From Chloroflexota bacterium (GTDB taxonomy: Bacteria > Chloroflexota > Anaerolineae > Anaerolineales > UBA4823), in contig JAEWYL010000205.1 in assembly GCA_023395675.1 (NCBI GenBank), positions 1 through 43,533 of the forward strand: DNA of 43,533 nucleotides, read 5' to 3'. Positions within the stretch are counted from its first letter, which is position 1. Each line of letters begins with the position of its first letter. The translations under genes and the position numbers were made by a program. Below, piece after piece: positions 6,606-23,328 of the stretch. The notes below the pieces were generated by a model. It was not told where the DNA came from and made no database searches. It was given only the letters and a program-made list of their open reading frames with translations.

Positions 6606-6643
6606 AAAAAGGGGCGGAGCGCCTCGGAAGAAGCGCTCCGCCC
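6606..6643 (-). terminator. intrinsic (rho-independent) terminator closing the hox/fdh gene string
   Basis: Minus-strand RNA reads GGGCGGAGCGC-uucuuccgag-GCGCUCCGCCC-C-UUUUU. That is an 11-bp perfect GC-rich stem, a 10-nt loop and a U5 tract, starting 15 nt after the fdhA stop (6659-6661). Confidence 0.85.
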
Positions 6644-9591: not shown

Positions 9592-10086
9592 TCAGGTTTT
9601 CACCTCCAGCCAATCCCAGATGCGGTCCGCCGCCTGCGCCGCCAGCTCGGCCGTGCGGGGGGACAGCGCGCGCGAGAAGCCGAAGCTGTAACCCCGTACC
9701 GAGACCAGCAGCGCCTCCGGCTCCTGGCCGTACAGCGCGCCGGTAAAGGACAGGAGCGATTCAGGGGTCAGGTGATGGGTGAAAGGCGAGGTCTGAAACT
9801 CCTGGCGCACCGGGACGGCGCGCACTTCCTCTGGCACTGCCCCCGTATGCGCGTCAATAAAGCAGATGCGCTCGAACTCTGCCGCGGTCTCCGCCAGCTC
9901 AGGGGTAAGCTGGAGCACAAAGAGCAGCTCGATCTCTTCCCCCTGCAGGTCGAAGGCCTCCTCGACGGCGTCCGGGGCCGGCCGGCCGAGACGGCGGGCG
10001 ATCTCCGCCAGGACGTGATACGCCACGCCGTCATCTTCCCGGTCGATATTCCCGTAGCCCAGGAGCAGAGTCTTCTTATCGCTCAA
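9592..10086 (-). CDS. hoxW: [NiFe] hydrogenase maturation endopeptidase (HoxW/HycI family), 164 aa
   Basis: It has the motif LLLGYGNIDREDDGVAYHV (GxGNxxxxDDGxG) and a C-terminal DAH (FIDAHTG). The track ORF starts at 10137 inside hoxH. I prefer TTG 10084-10086, which is preceded by AGGGAG placed between the hoxH stop (TAA 10097-10099) and the TTG. Confidence 0.8.
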   Translation of the reverse strand: MSDKKTLLLGYGNIDREDDGVAYHVLAEIARRLGRPAPDAVEEAFDLQGEEIELLFVLQLTPELAETAAEFERICFIDAHTGAVPEEVRAVPVRQEFQTSPFTHHLTPESLLSFTGALYGQEPEALLVSVRGYSFGFSRALSPRTAELAAQAADRIWDWLEVKT

Positions 10087-10096
10087 CCGGCTCCCT

Positions 10097-11524
10097 TTAT
10101 CCTTGCGTGAGGGTCTTGACCAGGCCGCCGTCCGCATCCAGGACTTCGACCTCGATCGGCATCTGGCCTACTGCATGGGTGGAGCAGGACAGGCAGGGGT
10201 CGTAAGCCCGCACCGCAGCCTCGACCCGGTTCAGCAGCCCTTCGCGGATCTCCGGGCCGGTGATATAGGTCTTGGCGACGCTGTCCACCGCCTGGCTCAT
10301 GGCCCAGTTGTTGTGCCCGGTGGCCACGATCAGGTTCACGTGGGTGAGCGCGCCGTCCTCGTTCGCCTTGTAATGGTGGAAGAGCGTGCCGCGCGGCGCC
10401 TCCAGAATGCCCACGCCCTCTCCCCGGAAGTCCTTGCGGGTGTTGAGGATGTCGGTGCTGAGGGCATCCGGGTCCTCCAGGATGACGCGCGCCCGTTCTA
10501 CCGCAAAGAGCGTTTCGATCAGGCGGGCGTAGTGGTAGTAGAGCGTGTTCTCCACCGGTCCGCCGGGGTTGAGGGCTTTGAAGCGCAGCAGTTCGGCCTG
10601 CGCCAGCGGGGTGCCAATCTTTTCCGCCGCGTTCAGGCGTCCCAGCGGGCCCACGCGGTAGACGCCGTCGGGCCAGCCCATCTTCTTGTAGTAAGGGAAC
10701 TTGAGGTAAGACCAGCTCTCCACGTGCTCGGCGATGTAATCCAGGTAATCCCCTCCGGCGAATTTCTCGAGCTGCACGCCGTCGGCGCCGATCAGGCGCA
10801 CGGCGCCTTCGTAGAGCTCCAATCCGTTCTCGGGCGTGACCAGGCTCATATAGCCGGTGGGGAAGACCGCAAACTTGCGGATATCCTCCATATTCCGTTC
10901 GGCCCAATCCCGGGCGATGCCCAGGCCGGTCTGGATGGCTTCGATGGCCGCATCCACGCCCGCCAGGATCGTCTCGCGCTCGCCGGGCTGCAGGGCCTTG
11001 TTCACCCCGCCGGGGACGGCGAAGTTCGGGTGGATCCTGCGCCCGCCCAGAATACGGATGATCTCCTGTCCAAACTTGCGCAGGTTCACCGCTTTGAGCG
11101 CCAGCTCCGGGTTTGCACCGATCAGGCCGATCACGTTGCGGGAGGCAGGGTCGGCGTCGAAGCCGAGCAGCAGGTCGGGGCCGGCCAGCTCGAAAAAGTG
11201 CATGCCGTGGCTCTGGATCACCTGGCCCATGTGCATCAGCTCGCGCAGCAGGCTGGCCGGGCGGGGCGGGGGCGAGCCGGCCAGGTCGTCGGCGGCTTTG
11301 GCTGCCGCCAGGTGATGGCTGACCGGGCAGATACCGCAGATGCGGGGGGTGATGGATGGCATCTCGAAGTACATCCTGCCCTCGCAGAACTTCTCGAAGC
11401 CGCGGAATTCATTGATGTGCAGATAAGCCCGGTCCACCGTCCCACCCTCGTTCATGTGGATGGTGACTTTGGCGTGTCCCTCGATCCTGGTGACCGGCTC
11501 GATCGTAATTTTTTGTGTCGTCAT
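10097..11524 (-). CDS. hoxH: [NiFe] hydrogenase large subunit, cytosolic group 3 (HoxH-like, most consistent with 3d), 475 aa
   Basis: It has the N-terminal Ni-binding motif [10 protein letters not shown] and the C-terminal motif [10 protein letters not shown] 25-residue tail ([11 protein letters not shown]...) follows, which is the expected substrate for the adjacent protease. GGAGAG lies upstream of the ATG. The subgroup is inferred from the HoxEFUY neighbours, not from phylogeny. Confidence 0.9.
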
Positions 11525-11612: not shown

Positions 11613-12155
11613 TTAGTGCCAGTGAAGCTTATCGTCCTTGATCTCGGGGATGCGCCCCTGGGCCAGTTCGCTGAGGACGTAGTAGATCACGTCCGGGTCG
11701 GGCGGGCAGCCGGGCACGAACACGTCCACGGGAACCACCTCGTGAATGGCGCGGGTGTCCTGCATCACCGCCAGCTCGGGGTCGTCCGGGATCTTGCCTC
11801 CGGCATCGGTGCTTTCGGTCTCCACGTAAGCCCGGCGCAGGGCGGCCTCGATCCCGCAGAAGTTGCGCATGGCAGGCACGCCGCCGAACACGGCGCAGTC
11901 GCCCAGGGCGACCAGGATCTTGCAGCGGCTGCGCATCTTGTGCGCCACCTCTTCGTTGGCCGAGTTGTTAATCCCGCCCTCGAGGATGCCCACCTCCACA
12001 CCGCTCTCATCCGGCTCTTTCAGATCGGTCACCGGGGTGGCGCGGATATCGGCCAGTTGGGCAATTTCTACGATACGCTCGTCAATATCCAGCAGCGACA
12101 TGTGGCAGCCGGCGCAGCCCGCCATCCAATCGCTAGAAATTTTCGGTTTCGTCAT
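11613..12155 (-). CDS. hoxY: [NiFe] hydrogenase small subunit, short HoxY type (180 aa)
   Basis: Only the proximal-cluster cysteines are present (AGCAGCHMS, GDCAVFGG, VPGCPP), and the ~180 aa length is typical of HoxY. I chose ATG 12153-12155 (MTKPKISS) because AGGAG lies 8 nt upstream. Confidence 0.85.
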   Translation of the reverse strand: MTKPKISSDWMAGCAGCHMSLLDIDERIVEIAQLADIRATPVTDLKEPDESGVEVGILEGGINNSANEEVAHKMRSRCKILVALGDCAVFGGVPAMRNFCGIEAALRRAYVETESTDAGGKIPDDPELAVMQDTRAIHEVVPVDVFVPGCPPDPDVIYYVLSELAQGRIPEIKDDKLHWH

Positions 12156-12237: not shown

Positions 12238-14094
12238 TTATGCGGCCGCCTTTTCGACCAGTTCAGCCTTCCAGTCGCCGCTGAGCGGAGAGCCAAGGCA
12301 GGCAGCCAGGGCCGATAGGGCCTCTTCGTTCGAGCGCACCCAGGCGGCGGGCGCGACGCCCGCGCGGGCGGCCTGCAGCCGGCCTTCCAGGTTCAGGTAG
12401 TGCCCGGCCTGTTCGGCCCAGGTGCCTACCGGCAGGACCACGTCCGCCTGCTCGGTGAGCGGCGAGGCGTAGCTGGCCTGCACGGCGAGGAAAGGCACGC
12501 CGGAGAGGCTCTCGACGAGCTGCAGGCTGGGGACGTCGTCTCCCAGGGCCAGGAAAGCGGCCGCGCAGCCTTCAGGGTTGAATGCGCCCTGCAGGCCGTA
12601 GCGGCGGGCCGCCAGGCTGTTGGCGCCGCCCGCGGTCTGGACCACCGGCGCCCCGTTTGCCAGGGCGACCAGGGCTTCCAGGGCTCCGGGCTCCGCGATG
12701 ACCAGCGCGCCGGCCACGAAGACCGGTTTCCGGGCCTGGGCGATCAGGCGCGCGGCCTGGGCCAGGCTGGAGGAGGCGCCATTACCGCCCACGCTCTGCA
12801 CTGCAGTCGCCAGGCTGCGCAGGGTCTCGCCCAGCCCGCCTTCCGCCGTGCGAATGTTCAGCGAGGCGTGTTCCGCCAGGCCGTTCTCGTCGCTGTCAAC
12901 CAGCACCAGGTTGGTCCCCTGCGGCAGGCTGCGTTTGATAAAGAAACCGGCGACCTGGTGGCCGGCAGCCAGGTCGGCCCCAACCACAACCACACAGTCC
13001 GCGTCTTTCAGGGCCTTCAGGCTCTGCGCGGCGGGCAGATCCGCCATGCGGGCGGCCTCGATGCCGGCAGCGGCCCTGCCGCCGAGCTTCTCCACAAACA
13101 GCTCCTTGAAAGAGGCCAGGGCCTCGGCGGTCAGACGGGTGGAGGCCAGGGCGGAGATCCGGCCGGGAGAGCCTGCCAGCGGGGCCAGCTTACCGGCGAT
13201 GAAAGCGGTCGCTTCCTCCCAGGTGGCCGGCTCCAGGCTGCCGTTCTTGCGCACCAGCGGCGTGGTCAGGCGGGGGCGGTCGTCCTCCACAGGCAGGTAG
13301 TGGCCTGCTTCGCACAGCACGCCGCCGTTCACCGGGTGCTCCCAGTCGCCGTCGACGCGCACCAGGCGGTTGTCCCGCACCACCAGCTCAATCCCGCAGC
13401 CGACCGAACAGCCGGCGCAGACCGAGGGGATGCGCTCGAACTCGGCCTCTTTGCCCAGGTAAGCGTCTACCCGGTCAATCAAGGCCCCGGTCGGGCAGAC
13501 CTGCACGCAGGTCCCGCAGCGAATACAGCTGCTCTCACCGACCGGCAGCCCGTAATCAGCCACCACCATGGTAGAGGCGCCCCGGTTTTCGAGGCTCAGG
13601 GTGTGGCTGCCCACCAGCTCGTCACAGGCGCGCACGCAGCGGCGGCACAGGATGCAGCGGTTGTGATCCAGTACAAAATAAGGGTGCGAAGCATCCACCG
13701 GATAGGGCTTCCAGGCCGGCTGAATGGGCCAGTGGGTCATGCCCTCTCCGTAGGCGGCGTTCTGCAGCTCGCAGTCGCCGTTCGTCTTCTGGCAGTACAT
13801 GCAGAAGTGGTTGCGTTCGCTGAAAAGCAAGGTCAGGACGAACTCCCGGGCTTTCTTCACCGCAGGGCTGTCGGTGTGCACCACCATCCCGTTGGTTACA
13901 GGCAGCGTGCAGGAGGTCTGCAGGGTGCGCATACCCTCCACCTCGACCACACACAGGCGGCAGCCGCCGTAGGGCTTCAGCGAGGGGTGATCGCACAGGG
14001 TGGGGATGTCCAAACCCGCCAGCCTGGCTGCTTCCAGCACAGTGGACCCGGCCTGCACCTCAATAGACTGACCATTAATTGTTACTGCTACCAT
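12238..14094 (-). CDS. hoxU: HoxU-position Fe-S subunit, NuoG/FdhA-like with degenerate C-terminal MopB-like domain (618 aa)
   Basis: It has a 2Fe-2S motif (CDHPSLKPYGGCRLC), a His/Cys cluster region (NHFCMYCQKTNGDCELQ), 4Fe-4S motifs (CILCRRCVRAC, CIRCGTCVQVCP) and a MopB-type cluster (CAGCSVGC...LCEAG). About 330 aa follow with no Sec/Cys-His catalytic segment. I chose ATG 14092-14094 (MVAVTINGQ) with AGGAGA upstream. Confidence 0.8.
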   Translation of the reverse strand: MVAVTINGQSIEVQAGSTVLEAARLAGLDIPTLCDHPSLKPYGGCRLCVVEVEGMRTLQTSCTLPVTNGMVVHTDSPAVKKAREFVLTLLFSERNHFCMYCQKTNGDCELQNAAYGEGMTHWPIQPAWKPYPVDASHPYFVLDHNRCILCRRCVRACDELVGSHTLSLENRGASTMVVADYGLPVGESSCIRCGTCVQVCPTGALIDRVDAYLGKEAEFERIPSVCAGCSVGCGIELVVRDNRLVRVDGDWEHPVNGGVLCEAGHYLPVEDDRPRLTTPLVRKNGSLEPATWEEATAFIAGKLAPLAGSPGRISALASTRLTAEALASFKELFVEKLGGRAAAGIEAARMADLPAAQSLKALKDADCVVVVGADLAAGHQVAGFFIKRSLPQGTNLVLVDSDENGLAEHASLNIRTAEGGLGETLRSLATAVQSVGGNGASSSLAQAARLIAQARKPVFVAGALVIAEPGALEALVALANGAPVVQTAGGANSLAARRYGLQGAFNPEGCAAAFLALGDDVPSLQLVESLSGVPFLAVQASYASPLTEQADVVLPVGTWAEQAGHYLNLEGRLQAARAGVAPAAWVRSNEEALSALAACLGSPLSGDWKAELVEKAAA

Positions 14095-14117: not shown

Positions 14118-15758
14118 CTAAGCAAGCGCCGGGACCTGATCCATCGGGCAGACGCCGGTGGGGCATACGCCCAGACGGATATGGGCCTCAACTTCAGCGC
14201 GGAAGTGTTTCAAAATATCGCGGATCGCCACCGAGGCAGTCTGCCCCAGCCCGCAGTTGGAAAGTTGTTCCATCGCCACGCCCAGGCGCTGGATCTCGTC
14301 CAGCTCCTCCAGGCTCCCGGCGCCGGCTGCCAGCCGCTCCAGGATCTCGTAGGTGCGCTGTGTGCCGATGCGGCAGGGGGTGCATTTTCCGCAGCTTTCG
14401 AAGCGGAAGAACTGCATCAGCACCCGGGCCAGATCCACCACGCAGGTACGGTCGTCGCAGACCAGCAGCGCGCCGGACCCCAGGGATACTCCGGCCTTGC
14501 GGAACGATTCGAAGTCCATGGGCGTGTCCACCAGGCTCGCCGGTACGATCGAGCCGCTGGACCCGCCGGTCTGGAACAGTTTGAGCGGGCGGCCGTCCTT
14601 CATGCCCCTGGCGTAAATGGCGATCACCTCTCGCAGGGTAATGCCCATGGGCACTTCGATCACCCCGGTCATGTTCACGTTGCCCAGGATGGTGTAGACC
14701 TTGGTCCCCGGGCTGCGAGGGGTGCCGAAGCTCCTGTACCAGGCGGCCCCATGCCTCAAGATCGGCGGGACATTGGCCAGGGTCTCCACATTGTTCACCA
14801 GGGTCGGCTTGCCCCACAGGCCCTTCGTGGGCGGGTAGGGCGGGCGGGAGCGCGGCTCGCCGCGCTTGCCCTCGATGGATTCGATCAGGGCGGTCTCCTC
14901 GCCGCAGATATAGGCCCCGGCTCCGGCATGGACGTGCAGGTCGAAGCTGAAATCCGTGTTGAACAGGCCCTTGCCCAGCAGTCCGTGGGCGCGCGCCTGT
15001 TCAATGGCCTTCTCCAGGCGCTGGTATGCCAGGCCGTACTCGCCGCGGATATAAATATAGCCTTCGCTGGCGCCCACCGCATAAGCGGCGATGGTCATGG
15101 CCTCCACGATGCTGTGAGGGTCGCCCTCCAGGATCATGCGGTCTTTAAAGGTGCCCGGCTCGCTCTCGTCGGCGTTGCAGATCACGTACTTGGGATCGCC
15201 CTCGGCCGAGGCGACAAACGTCCACTTGCGCGCCAGAGGGAAGCCCGCCCCGCCGCGGCCCTGCAGCCCGGAGGCGTCCAGCTCCGCGATCACCTGCTGG
15301 GGGGTCATCTCCGTCAGCACCTTCGCCAGGGCTTCGTAGCCCTCGTTCAGGATGTATTCCTCGATGCTCTCCGGGTCGATTTTCCCTGCCCGCTGCAGCA
15401 CAATGCGCTGCTCGGCGGGCATGGCGCCTTTCCGGGCTCGCAGCCAGGCGATGGAGCCGGAGAGTTCGCGCACGGGGGCGAGCATGCTCTCGACCACGCG
15501 GCCTTTGTACAGGTGTTCCTCGACCAGAAGGTGAGCGTCCTCCGGACGTACGGGCCCGTACACCACCGCCTCGGGGTAGACCACCACCATCGGCAGGGCG
15601 TCGTGCCGGCCCAGGTCTCCGGCCATCGCCAGAGAGATTTCATCGGACAGGCCGTAGGCCTCGATCTCCTGCTGCAGCGCTTCCTGCAGGCGGTAAGCCC
15701 CACGCTGCATGCTCTGGGGGTCGCTGGATATCAGAACCATGGATCGGATTGTCTTCAT
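14118..15758 (-). CDS. hoxF: NAD(H)-binding flavoprotein subunit, NuoF/HoxF type (546 aa)
   Basis: It has an FMN/NADH site GRGGAGFPLARKW and an N3 cluster motif ESCGKCTPCRIGT. The N-terminal thioredoxin-like domain has no cysteines, and there is no C-terminal 2x[4Fe-4S] domain. I chose ATG 15756-15758 (MKTIRSMV), 11 nt after the hoxE stop, with AAGGA upstream. Confidence 0.85.
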   Translation of the reverse strand: MKTIRSMVLISSDPQSMQRGAYRLQEALQQEIEAYGLSDEISLAMAGDLGRHDALPMVVVYPEAVVYGPVRPEDAHLLVEEHLYKGRVVESMLAPVRELSGSIAWLRARKGAMPAEQRIVLQRAGKIDPESIEEYILNEGYEALAKVLTEMTPQQVIAELDASGLQGRGGAGFPLARKWTFVASAEGDPKYVICNADESEPGTFKDRMILEGDPHSIVEAMTIAAYAVGASEGYIYIRGEYGLAYQRLEKAIEQARAHGLLGKGLFNTDFSFDLHVHAGAGAYICGEETALIESIEGKRGEPRSRPPYPPTKGLWGKPTLVNNVETLANVPPILRHGAAWYRSFGTPRSPGTKVYTILGNVNMTGVIEVPMGITLREVIAIYARGMKDGRPLKLFQTGGSSGSIVPASLVDTPMDFESFRKAGVSLGSGALLVCDDRTCVVDLARVLMQFFRFESCGKCTPCRIGTQRTYEILERLAAGAGSLEELDEIQRLGVAMEQLSNCGLGQTASVAIRDILKHFRAEVEAHIRLGVCPTGVCPMDQVPALA

Positions 15759-15769
15759 CGCGCCTGTCC

Positions 15770-16261
15770 TTATTCGTAGCGGGCCAGAATGCCGGGCACC
15801 TGTTCGGGCCGGACATTGCCGTATACGTCCTCGTCGATCAGCATCACCGGGCCTACCCCGCAGATCCCCAGGCAGCTGGTGGTGATCAGGGACCATTTCT
15901 TGTCGGGAGTGGTTTCGCCGGGTTCGAGCTGCAGGGCCTCTTTCACCGCTCCGAACAGCTCGCGTCCGCCCATTACGTGGCAGGGGGCACTCTCGCAGAA
16001 GCGCACCACGTGTTTTCCAAGCGGCTTCGTGGACAGCATCTCGTAAAAACTGGCTACCGCGAAGAGCTGCCCTTCCGAAACGCGCACGCTGGCGTTCCGC
16101 AGCTGTTTGCGCACTTCCACAAAAGCTTCCGGAGGGATATAGCCTAACGCGCGGTTCACCTCGCTGAGGATCGGGATGATGGCATCTCCATGGGCGCCGT
16201 GGAGCCTGATGGCCTCCTGGACGACTCCGGTGACATCTTTCTGGTTTATTTCGACCGACAT
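15770..16261 (-). CDS. hoxE: NuoE/HoxE-type [2Fe-2S] subunit (163 aa)
   Basis: Cluster motifs are RFCESAPCHVMG (Cx4C) and TSCLGICGVGP (Cx3C). I chose ATG 16259-16261 (MSVEINQ), preceded by AGGAGG. Confidence 0.85.
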   Translation of the reverse strand: MSVEINQKDVTGVVQEAIRLHGAHGDAIIPILSEVNRALGYIPPEAFVEVRKQLRNASVRVSEGQLFAVASFYEMLSTKPLGKHVVRFCESAPCHVMGGRELFGAVKEALQLEPGETTPDKKWSLITTSCLGICGVGPVMLIDEDVYGNVRPEQVPGILARYE

Positions 16262-16384: not shown

Positions 16385-18169
16385 TTAAGAAAGCACCTGG
16401 ATGGAGTTGAAGTTGCAGACCTGCATGCAGATACCGCAGCGGATGCAGGTTTCGACATCAATCTCATGCGGCTGGCGCCGCTCGCCGTGGATGGCCTCCA
16501 CCGGGCAGTTGCGGGCGCAGACCATACAACCGGTGCAGATATCCTTCTGGATCTCGTAGCGGATCAGCGGCTTGCAGACCTTTGCCGGGCAGCGCTTCTC
16601 GTTGATATGCGCCTCATACTCATCCCGGAAGAACTTCAAGGTGCTGATAACGGGGTTCGGCGCGCCCTGGCCCAGGCCGCACAGGCTGGTGGTGGTGATC
16701 TGCGAGCACAGGTCATCGAGCAGGTCCAGGTCCGAAGGCTGGCCCTCGCCCGAGCAGATGCGCTCCAGGGTCTCCAGCAGGCGGCGGGTGCCCACCCGGC
16801 AGGGGGTGCATTTACCGCAGGATTCGTCCTGGGTGAAATCCATGAAGTAGCGGGCGATATCCACCATGCAGGTATCTTCGTCCATCACGACGAAGCCGCC
16901 CGAGCCCATCATCGCCCCGGCTTTTACCAGGGCTTCGTAGTCCACCGGAAGGTCCAGGTAATCTGCCGGAAGGCAGCCGCCCATCGGGCCGCCGATCTGG
17001 ACGGCTTTGATGGCTTTTCCGTTCGGGATGCCGCCGCCGACGTCGTAAACCACCTCGCGCAGCGTCATGCCCAACGGGACCTCAACCAGGCCGGTATTGT
17101 TCACGTCGCCGGCGATGGCGAAGGTCTTGGTGCCCTTCGAGCGCTCGGTCCCCATGCTGGCGAACCATTCCGGCCCGTTCAGGATAATCTGGGGGATATT
17201 GGCGTAGGTCTCGACGTTGTTGTTGTTGGTCGGTTTGTGCCACACACCCTTGACCGAGGGGTAGGGCGGGCGGGGGTGAGGCTCGCCGCGCTTGCCCTCG
17301 ATGGAGGCGATCAGCGCCGTCTCTTCACCGCAGACGAAAGCGCCGGCGCCTTTGCGCACTTCCATGTCGAAGGAGAAGCCGCTGCCCAGAATATCCTCGC
17401 CCAGCAGGCCCAGGGAACGGGCCTGTTCGATGGCGATGTTCAGGGTGCGCACGGCGATCGGGTACTCGGCCCGGCAGTAGATATAGCCGAAGCGCGCCCC
17501 GATGGCGTATGCGGCGATCACCATGCCCTCGATCACCGAATGGGGATCGCCTTCCAGGACGCGGCGGTTCATGAACGCGCCCGGGTCGCCCTCATCGGCG
17601 TTGCAGGTCAGGTATTTGGGGAAGTCAGGCACATTGCGCGTCAGCTCCCATTTTTTGGCGGCCGGGAACCCGGCTCCACCGCGGCCGCGCAGCCCGGACG
17701 CCATGACCGTCTCGATCACCTGCTCCGGAGTCATCTCCGTCAGCACTCTGGCCAGGGCGGCGTAGCCGTCTTCGGCAATATAATCCTCGATGTTCTCGGG
17801 ATCAATATTGCCGCAGTTGCGCAGCACCACGCGCACCTCTTTGGGTTTCGGCGGGCCGAGCTCTTCGTCCTTTGAAACCGCCAGCGGCAGCCGGTATTTC
17901 TCCACCACCCGGCCTTTGAGGAAATGCTCCTCGACCAGGAAAGGGATATCGTCTTCGGTCAGGCCGGCATAGTGGATTCCCTCGGGATATACCATCATCT
18001 CCGGGCCGGAGGCGCAGCCGCCGATGCGGGAAGTCTCCAGCACCTGCACCTCTTCAATCAGCCCCTGAGCGACCAGTTCGTCTTGCAGGGCGTCCATCAC
18101 CTGATGGGCGCCGTGAGCCAGGCACTCGGGGTCTGCACACACGAGTACGTGAGAGCGGTAATAGTGCAT
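16385..18169 (-). CDS. NuoF-like flavoprotein of the HydB/HndC (bifurcating-type) architecture (594 aa)
   Basis: The N-terminal thioredoxin-like domain carries Cys (HVLVCADPEC...GGCASGP). It has FMN/NADH site GRGGAGFPAAKKW and cluster motif ESCGKCTPCRVGT. The C-terminal ferredoxin domain has two CxxCxxCxxxC(P) motifs (CTGCMVCARNCP, CIRCGICMQVCN). Confidence 0.88.
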   Translation of the reverse strand: MHYYRSHVLVCADPECLAHGAHQVMDALQDELVAQGLIEEVQVLETSRIGGCASGPEMMVYPEGIHYAGLTEDDIPFLVEEHFLKGRVVEKYRLPLAVSKDEELGPPKPKEVRVVLRNCGNIDPENIEDYIAEDGYAALARVLTEMTPEQVIETVMASGLRGRGGAGFPAAKKWELTRNVPDFPKYLTCNADEGDPGAFMNRRVLEGDPHSVIEGMVIAAYAIGARFGYIYCRAEYPIAVRTLNIAIEQARSLGLLGEDILGSGFSFDMEVRKGAGAFVCGEETALIASIEGKRGEPHPRPPYPSVKGVWHKPTNNNNVETYANIPQIILNGPEWFASMGTERSKGTKTFAIAGDVNNTGLVEVPLGMTLREVVYDVGGGIPNGKAIKAVQIGGPMGGCLPADYLDLPVDYEALVKAGAMMGSGGFVVMDEDTCMVDIARYFMDFTQDESCGKCTPCRVGTRRLLETLERICSGEGQPSDLDLLDDLCSQITTTSLCGLGQGAPNPVISTLKFFRDEYEAHINEKRCPAKVCKPLIRYEIQKDICTGCMVCARNCPVEAIHGERRQPHEIDVETCIRCGICMQVCNFNSIQVLS

Positions 18170-18171
18170 TC

Positions 18172-18540
18172 TTATGCCTCGATCGTGAATTCCTTGACCG
18201 GCTGGCCTCCGAGGACGTGTTCCTTCAAGATCCGTATCGCCACCTCAGGGGTTACCTTGCCGTAGGTTACTTTGGGATTTTCGCCAACCGTCACCTGTAC
18301 GATCGGTTCGCGTTCGCACAGCCCGATGCAGCCGGTTTGGGTCACTACAATGCCGCTCAGGTTGTCAGTTTCAATCTGGTTGAGAAGCGCCTTCATGGTG
18401 TCACGCGCGCCTGCGGCGATCCCGCAGGTGCCCATGGCGACGACCACCTGGGCCTGCCCTTCGGCAGTCTTTACTCTGCGCTTCTCCAGCGCTTCTTCTC
18501 TCAGGCGCTTCAGGTCTTCGATGGATTTGATCGCGGTCAT
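18172..18540 (-). CDS. thioredoxin-like [2Fe-2S] ferredoxin, HndB-like (122 aa)
   Basis: The segments VVVAMGTCGIAAGA and TQTGCIGLCEREPIV are typical of HndB-type small subunits. Its stop lies 2 nt from the NuoF-like start. Confidence 0.75.
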   Translation of the reverse strand: MTAIKSIEDLKRLREEALEKRRVKTAEGQAQVVVAMGTCGIAAGARDTMKALLNQIETDNLSGIVVTQTGCIGLCEREPIVQVTVGENPKVTYGKVTPEVAIRILKEHVLGGQPVKEFTIEA

Positions 18541-18609
18541 CGGTATTCTCCTTCGTATCGTTCAAATCGCCAAATTCTGGCTCTGCCGGGCTGGTGCCGC
18601 CTTGCTGGC

Positions 18610-19230
18610 TCACCGGCCGGAGCTTGTTTCTGTCTCAAGTGCTGAAAAAATCCCGGCGCGGGCTGCCACAGCCTCCCGCACCTGCGCTTCACCGGCTTCC
18701 AGGCTCTCGCGCAGGTAGCGCAGCACCTCCGGCTCGGTGAGGGGGAGGTCGCCCAGGGCCTCTTTCAACTCCCGGTCGTCAAAGCGGAAGTCCACCGGGG
18801 AAAGCTCTCCCGGGAGGTCCGCCCCGTATTCGAACACCCAATGCACCTGCGGGTGAGCGATCAGCAGGGTCAGCCAGGTGCTCGCCAGGTCGCCAAGCGG
18901 CATGCGGTCAATATGGCTGTGCTGGAACCACACCCTCAGCGTTGTTCCCTGGCCCGGGGCGGTCTCGAGCTCCAGACCGCCGCAGCAGGCCTCGGCGGCC
19001 GCTTTGAGCAGCGGGATGCCCAGGCCCACCTTGCGGGTGGTGCGGCTGGTGGTGAAAGGATCGCTCACGCAGGCCGCCAGGGCGGCGTCCATGCCGCGCC
19101 CATCGTCCCGGACAGAGGCGCTGAGCCGGTCGCCGGCCAGGTCTTCGCGCACAGAGACCGTCACGCTGCCGGCTTCCGCGGCGGTCGAGTTCTCTGCAAT
19201 ATCCAGGAGGTGGAGGGCGATCTCTCTCAT
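18610..19230 (-). CDS. stand-alone GHKL (histidine-kinase-like) ATPase domain protein (206 aa)
   Basis: It has an N box (HLLDIAENS), a G1 box (RDDGRGMD) and a G2-like box (GLGIPLL). There is no HisKA/DHp or sensor domain. The ~90 aa C-terminal part is unassigned. It sits between the NuoE-like and HndB-like genes, as in many HydABC operons. Confidence 0.7.
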   Translation of the reverse strand: MREIALHLLDIAENSTAAEAGSVTVSVREDLAGDRLSASVRDDGRGMDAALAACVSDPFTTSRTTRKVGLGIPLLKAAAEACCGGLELETAPGQGTTLRVWFQHSHIDRMPLGDLASTWLTLLIAHPQVHWVFEYGADLPGELSPVDFRFDDRELKEALGDLPLTEPEVLRYLRESLEAGEAQVREAVAARAGIFSALETETSSGR

Positions 19231-19244
19231 CGGCGTTCCGGGTT

Positions 19245-19751
19245 CTAGTCCTGCACCTTCTTCAAGAGCTGCGGGACCTTATTCGGGCGCACGCGCCCGG
19301 TCACTTCTTCGTCAACCACGATCACCGGCGCCTGGGAACAGGCCCCCACGCAGCGGCAGATCTCCAGGGTCACGTTACCGTCCGCGGTGGTCTGGCCGAT
19401 GTCAATCCCGAGGGCCTGCTTGGCCTTCTCGATCAGCTGCGGCATCCCGCCCACGTAGCAGGCCGTACCCATGCAAAACTTGATGGTGTGCTTGCCTCGC
19501 GGCTGGGTGGTGAAGAACGAATAAAAAGTGACCACCCCGTGGATGGAACCGACGGGCACATTCAGCTTCTGGGCAACGTAAGCCTGCATCGGCTCGGTAA
19601 TAAAGCCAATCTGGCTCTGCAGTTCGTTCAGAACGACCATCGTGGCTCCGGGGATGGTGCCGTTCTCCTCCAGGATCTGGTCGATCACGGCCCGTTTTTC
19701 CGGTACCACCAGCGGATCGTTGGCTGGAATGTTCTCTAACAGTTTCGTCAT
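19245..19751 (-). CDS. NuoE-like [2Fe-2S] subunit, HydC/HndA type (168 aa)
   Basis: Cluster motifs are KFCMGTACYVGG (Cx4C) and RCVGACSQAP (Cx3C). I chose ATG 19749-19751 (MTKLLENI) with AGGAG 10-14 nt upstream. Confidence 0.85.
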   Translation of the reverse strand: MTKLLENIPANDPLVVPEKRAVIDQILEENGTIPGATMVVLNELQSQIGFITEPMQAYVAQKLNVPVGSIHGVVTFYSFFTTQPRGKHTIKFCMGTACYVGGMPQLIEKAKQALGIDIGQTTADGNVTLEICRCVGACSQAPVIVVDEEVTGRVRPNKVPQLLKKVQD

Positions 19752-19909: not shown

Positions 19910-20653
19910 TTAGAGGATGCGGAGCGAGCGCCCCGCTTCTCCACGCAGGGCCAGGCGGAGCTCGTCCACGCAGGGAGCCTGCAGCTCCAGGCGGTTGGCT
20001 CCCAGAATTTCTTCCAGGCGGTGGGCGTCGCCCCCCTGGAGCAGCGGGTAACCCTCGATTTGCGGGAACTTACGCCCGGCCTCAGCGGGGCTGTGGTGGC
20101 GAGAGATCTCCAGCCCCTCGGCTTCCAGGTCGGGGGGGACCAGGCCCAGGTTGGCGATCAGCCCGAAGGCTTTGCGGTCTACGTGGGCCGGGACGGCCAG
20201 ACCGCCCAGCGCGCGCACCCCTGCGAAGACCTCTTCGATGCTCAGGGCCGCGGAGGTGAGCAGCAGGCGCTCTTCTCGCCGCAGGAAGTCGCCCGTCTCG
20301 TCCACCACGAACTGCTCCCCGAAGAAATCAATATTGTTCTCGATCTGCGGCAGGGCCCGGTCCACCTGCGCCTGCCAGGCCTCCAGCTGTTCGATCCGGT
20401 CGAACAGGCAGAGCACGTGCACTTCCTCCTGGGTCTGGAGCTCCATCCCCGGCAGGACGGTCAGGGCGCTGCCCTGCGCCGCCCGCTGCACAGCCCTGAC
20501 GTTGGCGCTGGCGTTGTGATCCGTTACCGCGATCAGGTGGATGCCGCGCTCCAGCACCTCCTGCACGATCAGGGGAGGGATCATCTCGACCTCGGCGCAG
20601 GGAGAGAGGACGGTGTGGATATGAAGTTCAGCCCGGTAAACCTGCATCACCAT
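19910..20653 (-). CDS. PHP-domain metal-dependent phosphoesterase (247 aa)
   Basis: The N-terminal AELHIHTVLSPCA (HxH), internal AVTDHN and PAHVDR, and C-terminal GGDAH form the PHP histidine/aspartate motif series. Confidence 0.75.
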   Translation of the reverse strand: MVMQVYRAELHIHTVLSPCAEVEMIPPLIVQEVLERGIHLIAVTDHNASANVRAVQRAAQGSALTVLPGMELQTQEEVHVLCLFDRIEQLEAWQAQVDRALPQIENNIDFFGEQFVVDETGDFLRREERLLLTSAALSIEEVFAGVRALGGLAVPAHVDRKAFGLIANLGLVPPDLEAEGLEISRHHSPAEAGRKFPQIEGYPLLQGGDAHRLEEILGANRLELQAPCVDELRLALRGEAGRSLRIL

Positions 20654-20692
20654 CGTGCTCCACTCGCTTCCACCCTGCCTGTCCCGGCTCTC

Positions 20693-21043
20693 TCAGGCCT
20701 CCTCGGTGCGCAGTCCCAGCTTCCACAACCTGCCCACCACCTCGAAGGAGGGGCGGGAGGTGGAGAGCAGGGTCACTCCCTGCTGGTTGGCTTTTTCAAT
20801 GGTGGCGGCATCGGGGCGCGCCCCCTCGGTGATGATCACCGCGCTGAGGTCCAGCAGCCGGGCGACGGCGACAATATTGATATGCGCCTGCAGGGTGACC
20901 CACAGGTGCCCGCTTTTCGCGCCTGCCATGACACAGGACAGCAGGTCGGATACATAGCCGCCTGTGGGCGTGGTTTCTACGAAATTCGCCGGTTCAGTCA
21001 GGATCAACAGGTCGAGCTCTTCGATAATTTTTTGCAGTGTCAT
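20693..21043 (-). CDS. DRTGG-domain-like small protein (116 aa)
   Basis: The pattern is MTLQKIIEELDL...SDLLSCVM...WVTLQAHINIVAVARLLDLSAVIITEGARPDAATIEKANQQGVTLLSTSRPSFEVVGRL. This matches the DRTGG fold pattern (xxTGG replaced by TEG) and the usual ~115 aa stand-alone size. Confidence 0.6.
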   Translation of the reverse strand: MTLQKIIEELDLLILTEPANFVETTPTGGYVSDLLSCVMAGAKSGHLWVTLQAHINIVAVARLLDLSAVIITEGARPDAATIEKANQQGVTLLSTSRPSFEVVGRLWKLGLRTEEA

Positions 21044-21054
21044 GGTTAACTCCT

Positions 21055-21141
21055 AAGTACCTATCCGAAAAATTCTATGTTGTGATGGGGGGCGCAGCCC
21101 CCCGTCACAACCACAAATCATATATTTTTAGGATAGGTTCT
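21055..21141. repeat. nested-palindrome intergenic repeat, copy B (87 nt)
   Basis: Sequence: aagtACCTATCCgaaaaattctaTGTTGTGATGGGGGGCgcaGCCCCCCGTCACAACcacaaatcatatatttttaGGATAGGTtct. The outer inverted arms flank a 15-bp inner stem (one G-U pair). T5/A5 tracts lie on both sides. Its last nucleotides touch the stop codon at 21140-21142. Confidence 0.8.
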
Positions 21142-22132
21142 ACGCCTCTGCAGATTCGCGGAAACTGTCTCGCTCCTGCAGGTAAATGTACATCTCCAGC
21201 CGGGTCCCCTTCCCGGGCTCCGATTCCAGCAGCATGCGGTCTACACAGCGCTGAATGTTCGGCAGCCCCATGCCTGCCCCAAAACCCAGCTCGCGGATCT
21301 CCTCTGTGGCGGTGGAATAGCCCGTCTGCAGGGCCAGGTTCACATCCGGGATACCGGGACCGCCGTCCACCGCCTGCATCTTTATACGGTGCGGCTCGAT
21401 CTCCACCTTGATCATCCCGCCGCTGTTGGTGTGGATGATCAGGTTCATCTCCGCCTCGTACACCGCTATGCCGCAGCGCCGGGCAATCTGGGGGTTGGCG
21501 CCCAGGCGCACCAGGGCCCGCTTGATGCTGCTGGAAGCGTTGCCTCCGTGGATGAAATCACCCGCCTTGATGTGGTAGCGCAGAATCAGACTGGTGCGGT
21601 TCGAATAGATATCCTCAAACAGGTGGCTGGCCCGGTAGCGCCGCACCTCTTCCTCGTGAATATCCTTCTGCAGCGCCTCCAGCACACCGCGAGTGATATC
21701 CCCTTTGGTGATCATGCCCACCAGCTCGCCGTGCTCATCCACCACCGGCAGGCGCCCGACCTTGAAGCGGGCGAAGGTCTCGACCGCTTCGATCAGCGGG
21801 TCGAACTCGTTCACCTTGATCACCCGGCTGCTCATATAATCTCGCACCGGGGCGCCCAGGTCCATATCGGTCATCGCCCGGATCAAATCTTCCAGGCTGA
21901 CCACCCCCACCAGAGTCCCATCCTCGAGCACCGGCATACCGGAGATCTGCTCCTGGCGCAGCAGCTCGAGCACGGCGCGCATGCTGAGCTCCGGGGAGAC
22001 GAACTTCACCGCCCGGGTCATCGCTTCCCGGATCTTGATATCGTAAGCGAGTTCTTCGACCCGGGTGATCTCCTTCGCGTCCTGGTCTGTGATCACCCTG
22101 CGAGATGTGGTGGGGGAATCGGGATCAGTCAT
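21140..22132 (-). CDS. CBS-pair + GHKL ATPase protein (anti-sigma/SpoIIAB-like serine-kinase fold), 330 aa
   Basis: Two CBS motifs are present (AMTRAVKFVSPE...ISGMPVLEDGTLVGVVSLEDL; YMSSRVIKVNEF...VGRLPVVDEHGELVGMITKGDI). A kinase-like ATPase follows (YEAEMNLIIHT, DGGPGIPD, GFGAGMGLPN). I chose ATG 22130-22132 (MTDPDSP), which overlaps the upstream DRTGG stop by 8 nt. Confidence 0.75.
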   Translation of the reverse strand: MTDPDSPTTSRRVITDQDAKEITRVEELAYDIKIREAMTRAVKFVSPELSMRAVLELLRQEQISGMPVLEDGTLVGVVSLEDLIRAMTDMDLGAPVRDYMSSRVIKVNEFDPLIEAVETFARFKVGRLPVVDEHGELVGMITKGDITRGVLEALQKDIHEEEVRRYRASHLFEDIYSNRTSLILRYHIKAGDFIHGGNASSSIKRALVRLGANPQIARRCGIAVYEAEMNLIIHTNSGGMIKVEIEPHRIKMQAVDGGPGIPDVNLALQTGYSTATEEIRELGFGAGMGLPNIQRCVDRMLLESEPGKGTRLEMYIYLQERDSFRESAEA

Positions 22133-22499
22133 CACACTGCTGCTGCTGCAGGTTCCGCTCCATGCTCGGCAGCCCCGCTTCAAAAAGACGCCCGCACAGC
22201 TCGAACATGCCGTACGGGCTTGAGATGAGCGGGATGCCCTCCCGCTCGGCCAGCTGTATGGTTTCGTTGGGCGGCTGCTTGCCGCGCACCAGGATGATGG
22301 CGCGCACATCCGCCATCATCGCCGTCCGCACCACCTGCGGGTTGCACAGGCCGGTGAGCAGGATGGCGTTCGGCTGGATGGAGGCCAGCACGTCGCTCAT
22401 CAGGTCCGCGCCGCAGCCCCCGCTGACTTCGCAGTTCAGGTCGGCTCCATCTGAACAGACAGAGCCTTCGATTAGTTCAATGATCTTCTTCAGCTTCAT
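22125..22499 (-). CDS. DRTGG-domain-like small protein (124 aa)
   Basis: The pattern is MKLKKIIELIEG...ADLMSDVLA...AILLTGLCNPQVVRTAMMADVRAIILVRGKQPPNETIQLAEREGIPLISSPYGMFELCGRL, and it is paralogous to 20693-21043. I chose the start at ATG 22497-22499. No clear RBS is seen, so the start is uncertain. Confidence 0.55.
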   Translation of the reverse strand: MKLKKIIELIEGSVCSDGADLNCEVSGGCGADLMSDVLASIQPNAILLTGLCNPQVVRTAMMADVRAIILVRGKQPPNETIQLAEREGIPLISSPYGMFELCGRLFEAGLPSMERNLQQQQCDD

Positions 22500-22542
22500 G
22501 GATTTTGACCGCCAACAAGTTCCGTGCGCAACAAAGGCGACC

Positions 22543-23328
22543 TCAGGCCGTCGCCAGGATACGTTCAGGATGGGTATAAAGGTTGAAGCGGCCGCGGCGG
22601 GCATAACCGATCAGGGTGATGCCCCAGGCCTGGGCCATTTCAATCGAGAGGGAGCTGGGTGAAGTACGCGAGATCACCACAGCCGCCCCCTGCCGGGCTG
22701 CTTTTTGCAGCATTTCCGAGCTGATGCGCCCGGTGGTCAGGATCAACCTGCGTTCAAGCTGGATGCCTTCCAGCAGGCAGCGCCCCGCGAGCTTATCCAG
22801 GGTGTTGTGCCGCCCGATATCGTCGGCTGTGAACAGGATGCGCTCGCCGTCGCTCAGGGCGGAGGTGTGCACCCCGCCCGTGCGCCGGTACAGCTCCTGG
22901 TTTTCGAACAGCTCGCCGATCAGGCTGCATACCTGCTCGGGGTTCAGGCAGTCCCCATTCAGGCTGGGGGAGGGCAGGCGGCCCTCCACCGAGGTAAAGC
23001 CGCCCGTGCAGCCCGAAGTGCGCCGCCAGCGGGAGGGCTGCTCCACCGGGTGGTGCAGCCAGACGTCCACGTTGTCGCCCCGCCCGCAGACGTGCACCGA
23101 GGCCACCTCGGAACGGTCCGTGATGACCCCTTCGTTAAACAGGAAACCGGCCGCCAGGGCCTCTAGGTCCACCGGCGTGCACATGAAGGTCAGCCAGACC
23201 TCGCCGTTCACCGTCAGGGAGACGGGCTTTTCGACGATGGTTTCGCCGCTGTACGCCTCGCCCTGGTCTGGTCCGCTTTCCGTTGACCGGTACTGGTAAT
23301 ACTGGATGGCTTTCTCGGCTCTTTCCAT
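22543..23328 (-). CDS. fdhD: formate dehydrogenase accessory sulfurtransferase FdhD (261 aa)
   Basis: FdhD pattern throughout: VSLTVNGE, TPxDLEALAAGFLFNEG, a Cys loop TSGCTGG, GGVHTSAL, DIGRHNTLDKL and GRISSEMLQKAA. Confidence 0.88.
   Translation of the reverse strand: MERAEKAIQYYQYRSTESGPDQGEAYSGETIVEKPVSLTVNGEVWLTFMCTPVDLEALAAGFLFNEGVITDRSEVASVHVCGRGDNVDVWLHHPVEQPSRWRRTSGCTGGFTSVEGRLPSPSLNGDCLNPEQVCSLIGELFENQELYRRTGGVHTSALSDGERILFTADDIGRHNTLDKLAGRCLLEGIQLERRLILTTGRISSEMLQKAARQGAAVVISRTSPSSLSIEMAQAWGITLIGYARRGRFNLYTHPERILATA

Follow-up and report, generated by a model that had tools for sequence, protein, structure and literature searches.

Which enzyme does a bifurcating-type flavin module serve when no [FeFe] hydrogenase lies beside it? 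The question is raised by a 43,533-nucleotide contig of a Chloroflexota bacterium (Anaerolineae; Anaerolineales; UBA4823; JAEWYL010000205.1 of assembly GCA_023395675.1), which was analysed over its whole length and is called the window here. Positions 16385–19751 of the window hold HydC, a GHKL ATPase, HydD and HydB, exactly the four genes that a preliminary description, made from the letters alone, had placed there. That description left the module with no catalytic partner of its own. A partner is present in the window: a HydA-like scaffold and the NiFe hydrogenase subunits HydS and HydL. On sequence grounds we strongly assign the four genes to the flavin core of a NiFe-HydABCSL (NiFe-Bfu) hydrogenase. 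Between HydB and the HydA-like gene lies a second NuoE/NuoF-like pair, named E2 and F2 below. We consider it probable that HydBC, HydA and HydSL make up a bifurcating NiFe hydrogenase, with E2/F2 as an NADH-only diaphorase able to use the same HydA docking domain.

The flavin module matches a bifurcating NiFe hydrogenase

The reference enzyme is NiFe-HydABCSL (NiFe-Bfu, Type 3) of Acetomicrobium mobile, described in 2022 (PDB 7T2R/7T30; PMC8880783; PMC9304861). We called genes from Pfam, NCBIfam and PDB searches of the window proteins. HydB/BfuB (16385–18169, minus strand; 594 aa), the predicted bifurcating-type NAD(H)/flavin mononucleotide (FMN) subunit, carries Complex1_51K, SLBB and NADH_4Fe-4S domains followed by a C-terminal 2x[4Fe-4S] domain. 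Among solved structures it matches A. mobile NiFe-HydB best (7T2R_B; 841 bits, E = 6e-252), in an alignment over the full length, and it is 78% identical to HydB of Bellilinea caldifistulae. ADEGDPGAFM and GAGAFVCGEETAL are present, as they are in 120 of 120 close homologues, with the diagnostic residues A202, M204 and F282 all in place; the second NADH/FMN motif reads GAGAFVCGEE. In addition, HydB has the B1 ligands and all five B2 ligands, C438, C476, H525, C531 and C536 (Cys, Cys, His, CPxxxC), residue 476 being the variable position of the published BfuB site, next to C438, H525, C531 and C536 (PMC9304861).

Both cysteine motifs quoted in the preliminary description occur in the HydB translation, and its account of the C-terminal 2x[4Fe-4S] domain holds: the ferredoxin domain has 8 of 8 cysteines for B3/B4, with Fer4 matches at residues 539–588. 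Its cysteine-bearing N-terminal thioredoxin-like domain needs amendment, having three of the four canonical cysteines. Arginine replaces the third cysteine of the B5 site (residues 1–55; window 18000–18169), giving C-C-R-C, and does so in 118 of the 120 Anaerolineae homologues; the stretch ETSRIGGC corresponds to ETGCHGMC in A. mobile. The B5 cluster may be bound differently or lost. A neighbour-joining tree built from 95 NuoF-type sequences (398 core columns, 100 bootstraps) puts every sequence of the AFM type in one clade, with 100% bootstrap support. HydB belongs to that clade, F2 to a separate one, and the Anaerolineae HydB group adjoins A. mobile HydB. HydB thus groups with bifurcating HydB proteins and not with FdsB.

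The other genes of the module follow the same model. HydC/BfuC (19245–19751, minus strand; PF01257, E = 4e-45), NuoE-like and the putative carrier of the C1 [2Fe-2S] cluster, has all four cysteines (FCMGTAC...CRCVGAC), aligned with those of HydC in 7Q4V and 7T2R. Its best solved matches are both HydC proteins of bifurcating hydrogenases (7Q4V_C, 136 bits; 7T2R_C, 123 bits). The HisK-like GHKL ATPase (18610–19230, minus strand; PF02518 HATPase_c) and HydD (18172–18540, minus strand; weak PF01257 match), a small HndB-like thioredoxin-fold protein, lie between hydC and hydB. The A. mobile operon has hisK and hydD in the same place, plus hydP, and none of the three is found in the purified holoenzyme (PMC8880783). 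By analogy, HisK is probably regulatory and not an enzyme subunit. HydD is kept even in loci that lack hydB.

The HydA-like protein/BfuA (12238–14094, minus strand; 618 aa), a NuoG-like scaffold earlier called long HoxU, has 7T2R_A as its best PDB match (311 bits), in two stretches: a cluster-binding N-terminus and an inert pterin-like C-terminus. Pfam finds Fer2_4, NADH-G_4Fe-4S_3, Fer4, Molybdop_Fe4S4 and Molybdopterin in it but no Molydop_binding domain, and it has no H-cluster motif. All A1–A5 cluster ligands are present, including those of the His-ligated A3 (HFCMYC...GDC, two CxxCxxCxxxC, CAGCSVGC...C). In 7T2R the A3 cluster hands electrons to HydS, and HydBC is seen bound to HydA (PDB 7T2R; PMC8880783). 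Directly 3′ of the HydA-like gene lie the two group 3 NiFe subunits that NiFe-HydABCSL calls for. HydS (11613–12155, minus strand; PF01058) is a NiFe small subunit with four cysteines in its translation, enough for a single proximal [4Fe-4S] cluster. HydL (10097–11524, minus strand), the large subunit, scores 569 bits against 7T2R_D compared with 431 bits against the non-bifurcating HoxH 5XF9_D, and has both NiFe cysteine motifs, including DPCLSCSTH. The next gene encodes the maturation endopeptidase HydP/HoxW (9592–10086, minus strand; TIGR00072, 52 bits against a 47-bit cut-off). The best matches of HydB, HydA and HydL to 7T2R, the A. mobile operon order, the HydB diagnostics, the A1–A5 ligands and the AFM clade are what places the module in the NiFe-HydABCSL type.

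One feature of that type is altered. The genes hydB and hydA are consecutive in A. mobile (Anamo_1678 and 1677), whereas E2 and F2 intervene here and in 47 related loci. As the preliminary description had said, the window encodes no [FeFe] hydrogenase: Pfam scans of all large open reading frames found none, and a six-frame H-cluster motif scan returned a single chance TSCCP in a non-coding frame. Locus L003, a 265-kb contig 94% identical to the window, agrees with it in gene order and in its housekeeping flanks, with no hydA beside the cluster. Together with the whole-window scan it rules out a misassembly or a hydA just outside the cluster.

In public annotation, HydA-like scaffolds are widely named "formate dehydrogenase major subunit" or "molybdopterin-dependent oxidoreductase", yet they have neither the Molydop_binding domain nor the active-site motif. 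HydB and F2 appear there as "NuoF" or "HndC".

E2 and F2 form a distinct NuoEF lineage

E2 (15770–16261, minus strand; PF01257, E = 6e-39), a second NuoE-like [2Fe-2S] subunit, starts at an ATG at 16261 behind an AGGAGG Shine–Dalgarno sequence and has all four cysteines. PDB searches with E2 and with HydC both return Bfu-type HydC as the best match, and so do not discriminate between the two. F2 (14118–15758, minus strand; 546 aa), a second NuoF-like subunit, is readily told from HydB. Its motifs ADESEPGTFK and GAGAYICGEE are the pattern of non-bifurcating Nqo1, with T, K and Y in place of A202, M204 and F282, and TFK is found in 120 of 120 F2 homologues against AFM in 120 of 120 HydB homologues. 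The N-terminal domain of F2 is free of cysteines and a C-terminal ferredoxin domain is missing, so that B3–B5 are absent; the B1 ligands are retained, as are, unexpectedly, C438, H525, C531 and C536 of the B2 site. By the published diagnostics, F2 is predicted to be non-bifurcating.

F2 forms its own clade in the neighbour-joining tree (100% bootstrap) and is 53–55% identical to HydB types, 47–48% to complex I NuoF and 46–47% to FdsB. The best PDB matches had suggested a recently degenerated HydB copy; the deep separate clade, the different NADH/FMN signature and the level of identity rule this out. Ratios of non-synonymous to synonymous substitution (dN/dS) against the 94%-identical relative are 0.06 for F2, 0.08 for HydB, 0.11 for HydL and 0.14 for E2, and F2 is intact, and the pair conserved, in more than 80 loci. 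E2/F2 forms a NuoEF lineage of its own, and purifying selection on it is strong.

The pair had been named hoxE and hoxF. The NuoE-like character of the gene that follows HydB stands; its identity as HoxE does not, since E2 reaches 103 bits on an NCBIfam model with a cut-off of 224 (HydC reaches 151). On the HoxU model (cut-off 333), the HydA-like protein scores 239 bits, and the match covers only the N-terminal 212 of its 618 aa. With these scores falls a candidate explanation in which everything from E2/F2 onward is a hoxEFUYHW cassette inserted in a formate dehydrogenase (FDH) operon. This was the first of two wirings proposed in the preliminary description, in which HydBC and FdhA form a bifurcating FDH whose operon the cassette has split; the length of HydA and the lack of AFM in F2 also speak against it, and FdhA is itself the movable, dispensable element.

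FdhA is an optional selenoprotein

FdhA (6659–9460, minus strand) is an FdsA-like FDH catalytic subunit encoded downstream of the protease gene. Its N-terminal half has FdsA 6TG9_A as best solved match (271 bits), and Molybdopterin and Molydop_binding domains occupy its C-terminal half, which reaches 619 bits on TIGR01591. An in-frame TGA codon (8342–8344) aligns with the catalytic selenocysteine (Sec) or cysteine in HCARL-U-HSSTV; among relatives, the active-site codon is TGA in 8 and TGC or TGT in 8. Twelve nucleotides 3′ of the UGA codon lies a predicted hairpin resembling a selenocysteine insertion sequence (SECIS), GUGGCC-GGUCU-GGCCAC (8313–8329, minus strand). The hairpin and its GGUCU loop are conserved in TGA-type fdhA genes (noted in L003, L006, L011, L085, L087, L089 and L093), and in L011 and L006 changes on one side of the stem are compensated on the other. 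It matches no SECIS or other Rfam family, and its folding z-score is not significant; the Sec assignment is made because of the codon alignment and the conservation with compensatory changes.

Compared with the FdsA type, which has a [2Fe-2S] cluster, four [4Fe-4S] clusters and a pterin site, FdhA shows the FdsA match and the catalytic domains, but carries Sec instead of Cys and has lost a His-ligated [4Fe-4S] motif. This motif, His-x3-Cys-x2-Cys-x5-Cys, is that of the NuoG N5-like or A3 cluster. It is missing from the cluster-linked FdhA clade (window ~9140–9230, residues ~80–110; L001, L003, L093, L120, L125) and is kept in FdsA proteins, in L006 and L011, and in HydA-like proteins. The gene occupies either of two places: between F2 and HydA together with FocA (the Bellilinea type, with Cys encoded by TGC), or after the protease gene (the window type, with Sec). 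Because there are loci with E2/F2 and NiFe genes and no nearby FdhA, loci without hydB, and an FdhA locus without NiFe genes, FdhA is an optional add-on to the cluster.

The second flavin pair stays with the NiFe genes in loci without a nearby FdhA

The matches listed gave at least 86 loci with a gene of the F2 clade, which were annotated by tblastn with the window proteins. A scan with full-length F2 gave matches, among those listed, dominated by the generic GAYICGEE pattern; most were complex I and FDH loci and served only as outgroups. The gene before E2 is HydB in 67 of the 86 loci, HydD in 3, PHP in 1 and another gene in 3; no E2 was detected in 3, and the contig ends in 9. After F2 comes the HydA-like gene in 47, FocA-FdhA in 8, HydC in 1 and another gene in 2, with a contig end in 28. 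All look-ups in Anaerolineae seeded with HydB or HydA also found E2/F2. Informative loci comprise 12 with NiFe genes and FdhA, 15 with NiFe genes and no FdhA within 3–4 kb after the protease gene, and 2 of a single lineage (L093 and L097) in which FdhA-FdhD is present and NiFe genes are missing; both flavin pairs occur in L093. E2/F2 stays beside the NiFe genes where no FdhA is near, and also in some loci that have lost hydB.

Several variants show which parts can be lost or gained. L150 (9023–16215) runs from hisS into HydD-E2-F2-HydA-S-L-W, with no HydC or HydB within 20 kb. L110 and L141 share this form, devoid of HydC, HisK and HydB, and L110 (175–1992) keeps a 35-codon hydB remnant, which indicates a deletion. 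In Longilinea arvoryzae (L168, 8882–9817), F2 and hydA are separated by the formate/nitrite transporter gene FocA, without fdhA; FocA there is probably a relic of the Bellilinea-type order E2-F2-FocA-FdhA-HydA. An extra HydC′-HydB′ pair lies just 3′ of the hydrogenase cluster in L120 (16523–20319) and L151 (18124–20262); in L120 an FdhA from the same clade comes directly after it, and the L151 locus stops inside HydB′. HydB′ has no N-terminal domain and is 70–73% identical to the window HydB, and the pair looks as if the bifurcating module had been duplicated and then specialised for FDH.

Two further forms were seen. In L086 (4300–7371) the cluster encodes a third flavoprotein between hydD and the normal hydB, a fusion of 1023 aa in which a HydB-type NuoF bearing AFM is joined to a GltD/Pyr_redox_2 NAD(P)H domain; a similar fusion of 1026 aa is found in L007. 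L164 (6414–13378) runs HydC-HisK-HydD-HydB-E2-F2 and then encodes a cNMP-binding protein and hypB, hypF, hypD and hypE, the genes hydA, S, L and W being missing through either deletion or an assembly artefact.

Layout of the predicted transcription unit

The window has a G+C content of 65%, and nearly all real genes are on the minus strand. The cluster opens with fdhD (22543–23328, minus strand; PF02634 FdhD-NarQ, E = 2e-71), for a sulfur-carrier/chaperone of FDH; fdhD in this upstream position occurs only in loci that also bear FdhA. Four putative regulatory genes follow on the same strand: a DRTGG-domain protein (open reading frame 22125–22604; PF07085), a protein with two CBS domains and a histidine-kinase-like ATPase domain (open reading frame 21140–22309, likely start near 22135; PF00571, PF02518), a second DRTGG-domain protein (20693–21043; PF07085) and a PHP-domain protein, possibly a phosphoesterase regulator (19910–20647; PF02811). 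A later true start is probable for the first DRTGG protein (its L003 counterpart has 123 aa). The CBS-HATPase gene is syntenic across all related loci, and synteny is conserved for the second DRTGG gene and the PHP gene as well. Anaerolineae have the whole set (window 19910–22604), first DRTGG gene included, ahead of their Bfu-type clusters, and members of other phyla, a Clostridiaceae metagenome-assembled genome and bacterium BMS3Abin06 (L006, L026), have it in the same place. This suggests a conserved, uncharacterised regulatory module of Bfu-type enzymes.

At the far end, a strong intrinsic terminator (6612–6643, minus strand; a 14-bp stem with 11 G-C pairs, then a T run) begins 15 nt past the last base of the fdhA stop codon and likely ends the transcription unit; a search from fdhD to fdhA found no comparable terminator. 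Shine–Dalgarno sites support the chosen starts, among them that of HydS at 12155. Because the intergenic gaps are short, these sites are in place and the sole strong terminator follows fdhA, we read the cluster as one transcription unit. Housekeeping genes flank it, and a 406-aa protein with an N_BRCA1_IG (Ig-like) domain is encoded just 3′ of the terminator (5196–6416, minus strand).

Discussion

By homology with 7T2R, electrons would run H2 ↔ [NiFe] – S1 – A3 – A2 – A1 – B1 – FMN, and at the FMN they would be split or merged between NAD(H) and a C1 – B2 – B3/B4 path to ferredoxin. HydP/HoxW would mature the HydA-like/HydS/HydL part. For fermenting, often syntrophic Anaerolineae, the predicted direction is mainly from NADH plus reduced ferredoxin to H2. 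E2/F2, with its FMN, B1, B2-site ligands and the [2Fe-2S] cluster of E2, would be a diaphorase that works with NADH alone and does not bifurcate. By docking on the same NuoG-type domain of HydA, and on that of FdhA in loci that have one, it would provide an uncoupled route between NADH and H2 or formate beside the ferredoxin-coupled one. FdhA would be an optional third module, co-transcribed, passing electrons to one or both flavin pairs, or taking them from there, through A5 – A4 – A2 – A1. Two arms would result, HydA-SL on the A3 branch and FdhA, which has lost A3, on the A4/A5 branch, with lineages keeping different subsets. Homology, cofactor ligands, synteny and selection are what the sequences show; the activities, and which flavin pair docks on which scaffold, we infer. 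Such a modular reading is the simplest one that fits all the variants.

Several points weigh against it. In its common form the cluster encodes two flavin pairs but a single NuoG-type scaffold, so that alternative docking is an assumption. The B5 site of HydB, with three of four cysteines here and one in L005 (S-C-R-P), departs from the six-cluster BfuBC core, whose BfuB clusters, the four-Cys N-terminal [2Fe-2S] B5 included, are reported as invariant (PMC9304861). For A. mobile there are a purified enzyme and a structure, whereas the Anaerolineae type is known here from its genes. Cyanobacterial HoxEFUYH (Synechocystis) is reported to bifurcate without a C-terminal ferredoxin domain (bioRxiv 10.64898/2026.06.25.734504), and for this reason the missing domain alone is no proof that F2 does not bifurcate; the Synechocystis HoxF has AFM and GGPSG where F2 has TFK and GGSSG instead. 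Loci were scored as FdhA-less within 3–4 kb of the cluster, and an fdhA may lie elsewhere in those genomes. Lastly, outside its own clade F2 lies nearest, among the sequences sampled, to a flavoprotein encoded in an Anaerolineae FdhD-E-F-FdhA operon (L011; 82% bootstrap), which favours an FDH-dedicated role, at 52% identity and on a long branch. The evidence on E2/F2 is two-sided: ancestry hints at an FDH diaphorase, and distribution ties the pair to the hydrogenase without FdhA, even without HydBC.

That ancestry speaks for two separate, co-transcribed enzymes, a bifurcating NiFe-HydABCSL and an NAD-dependent, FdsGBA-like FDH made of E2, F2 and FdhA. The FdhA N-terminus matches FdsA best, F2 is built like FdsB, with no cluster in its N-terminal thioredoxin-like domain and the C-terminal ferredoxin domain absent, FdhA and FdhD of L011 are each 63% identical to those of the window, Bellilinea-type loci have a contiguous E2-F2-FocA-FdhA, and two scaffolds for two flavin pairs fit in number. 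Yet the pair, on which purifying selection is strong, persists in at least 15 loci without FdhA within 3–4 kb, Longilinea retains FocA only, and L150 joins E2/F2 to HydA-S-L with no HydBC. Moreover, F2 has ADESEPGTFK and not the ADEGDSGTFA of FdsB, it is no closer to the L011 flavoprotein than to HydB, and E2 is just 28% identical to the L011 E protein (tblastn). We regard two enzymes as unlikely, though worth keeping in view. The second wiring of the preliminary description, a hydrogenase of the A. mobile kind with HoxEF serving FdhA as an FdsGB pair, is this two-enzyme reading in full: its first half is well supported by the 7T2R matches and the operon order, and its second half finds partial support at best in the ancestry of F2, and none in the loci where E2/F2 stays with NiFe genes in the absence of nearby FdhA or after the loss of hydB.

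The converse pairing, which is the first wiring of the preliminary description, would join HydBC to FdhA as a bifurcating FDH (Type 1 Fdh-Bfu) and E2/F2 to HydA-S-L as a Hox-like, NADH-linked hydrogenase. HydC-(HydD)-HydB runs directly into an FdhA of the same family in L006 (48% identity) and, with the duplicated HydC′-HydB′, in L120 (58%), which leaves room for a HydBC–FdhA coupling even though the split-operon wiring fell; flavin genes accompany FdhA without NiFe genes in L093, E2/F2-HydA-S-L stands alone in L150, and Chloroflexi are among the phyla listed with Fdh-Bfu (Schut et al. 2022, PMC9304861). Most loci, however, have HydBC with HydA-S-L and no FdhA, where HydBC would be partnerless. 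HydB, HydA and HydL are each closest to the A. mobile enzyme, in which HydBC binds HydA, and the HydA-like protein retains the A3 cluster used for the path to HydS. We hold crossed pairing to be distinctly improbable. It is harder still to believe that E2/F2 is no working diaphorase, being instead a redox-sensing or assembly component or the leftover of a lost FDH operon. Regulatory genes abound in the operon (DRTGG, CBS-HATPase, PHP, HisK), F2 has lost two cluster-binding regions, and FocA without FdhA in Longilinea shows that relics persist; but the dN/dS of F2 is as low as those of HydB and HydL, the FMN/NADH motifs, B1 ligands and E2 cysteines are all intact, and the pair is conserved across the loci.

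The proposed bifurcating hydrogenase with an added NADH-only diaphorase can be set beside known systems. With A. mobile it shares the five subunits, each having its best solved match there, an H-cluster-less HydA with A1–A5 and an inert pterin-like domain, the AFM motif and B1–B4 ligands in HydB, and non-subunit hisK, hydD and maturation protease genes in the operon. It differs in the NuoE/NuoF pair inserted between hydB and hydA, in the Sec-FdhA and FdhD of the operon, in the three-cysteine N-terminal site of HydB and in its phylum, Chloroflexota (Anaerolineae). HytA-E/FdhA of Clostridium autoethanogenum (FdhFeFe-Bfu), a proven physical complex as relayed in PMC9304861 (Wang et al. 2013), likewise unites a BfuBC core, a hydrogenase and a selenium-type FDH in one cluster, making NADH/ferredoxin, H2 and formate interconvertible. 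In that account its hydrogenase is [FeFe], its BfuA has A1, A2 and A4 only and there is no second NuoEF; in the Anaerolineae such a complex may exist.

FdsGBA (Rhodobacter capsulatus, 6TG9/6TGA; Cupriavidus necator, 6VW7) resembles the cluster in the FdhA N-terminus, the FdsB-like architecture of F2 and the FdsG type of E2. It differs from it in the F2 signature, F2 falling outside a separate FdsB clade in the tree, in the Sec residue and lost His-ligated cluster of FdhA, and in that E2/F2 often occurs where FdhA does not (15 informative loci against 12). HoxEFUYH (group 3d; Synechocystis) and HoxFUYH (Hydrogenophilus thermoluteolus, 5XF9) likewise combine a group 3 NiFe dimer with a diaphorase of the NuoE/NuoF/NuoG kind, and the HydBC-less L150 (E2-F2-HydA-S-L-W) follows the same overall logic. 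Against a Hox assignment stand the missed HoxE and HoxU cut-offs, a HydA of 618 aa compared with about 240 aa for HoxU, a HydL closer to that of A. mobile, and an F2 without the AFM and GGPSG reported for HoxF (bioRxiv 10.64898/2026.06.25.734504). HydABC of Syntrophomonas wolfei, which is non-bifurcating and lets that syntroph make H2 from NADH alone, as cited in PMC9304861, is a precedent for a HydB homologue with a TxK-type NADH site and no ferredoxin-branch clusters; as cited there, it is [FeFe] and the sole flavin module of its operon, and F2 additionally keeps the B2-site ligands.

Our literature search found no paper that describes the Anaerolineae arrangement. One preprint names it HoxEFUHY, and a second calls it "group 3d with numerous accessory subunits". 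What is new is a NiFe-Bfu hydrogenase with an added flavin pair of predicted non-bifurcating type and an optional Sec-FDH, widespread in Anaerolineae. Bifurcating NiFe hydrogenases have been known from one purified enzyme and a published catalogue whose six entries come from Synergistetes and Euryarchaeota (Schut et al. 2022, PMC9304861), and our data suggest that the type is widespread in a class of abundant fermenters and syntrophs of digesters, sediments and wetlands, whose genes are routinely named "Hox", "NuoF" or "formate dehydrogenase major subunit". Putative bifurcating and non-bifurcating flavin modules side by side, predicted to share one catalytic scaffold, together with lineages that have lost a module or a catalytic arm, offer a natural comparison for the debated determinants of bifurcation.

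A further step would be one modular redox hub, in which a HydA-S-L arm and a Sec-FdhA arm are both served by the bifurcating HydBC and the non-bifurcating E2/F2. We think this unlikely, if conceivable. Were it true, the modules would sit in one supercomplex or exchange freely, as a NiFe counterpart of the Hyt-Fdh complex; such a hub would work as a clutch, with ferredoxin coupling engaged or bypassed according to H2 and formate pressure, and could support formate-hydrogen lyase activity or NADH:ferredoxin exchange. For the Anaerolineae themselves, the arrangement bears on the balance of NADH, ferredoxin, H2 and formate and on models of interspecies H2 and formate transfer.

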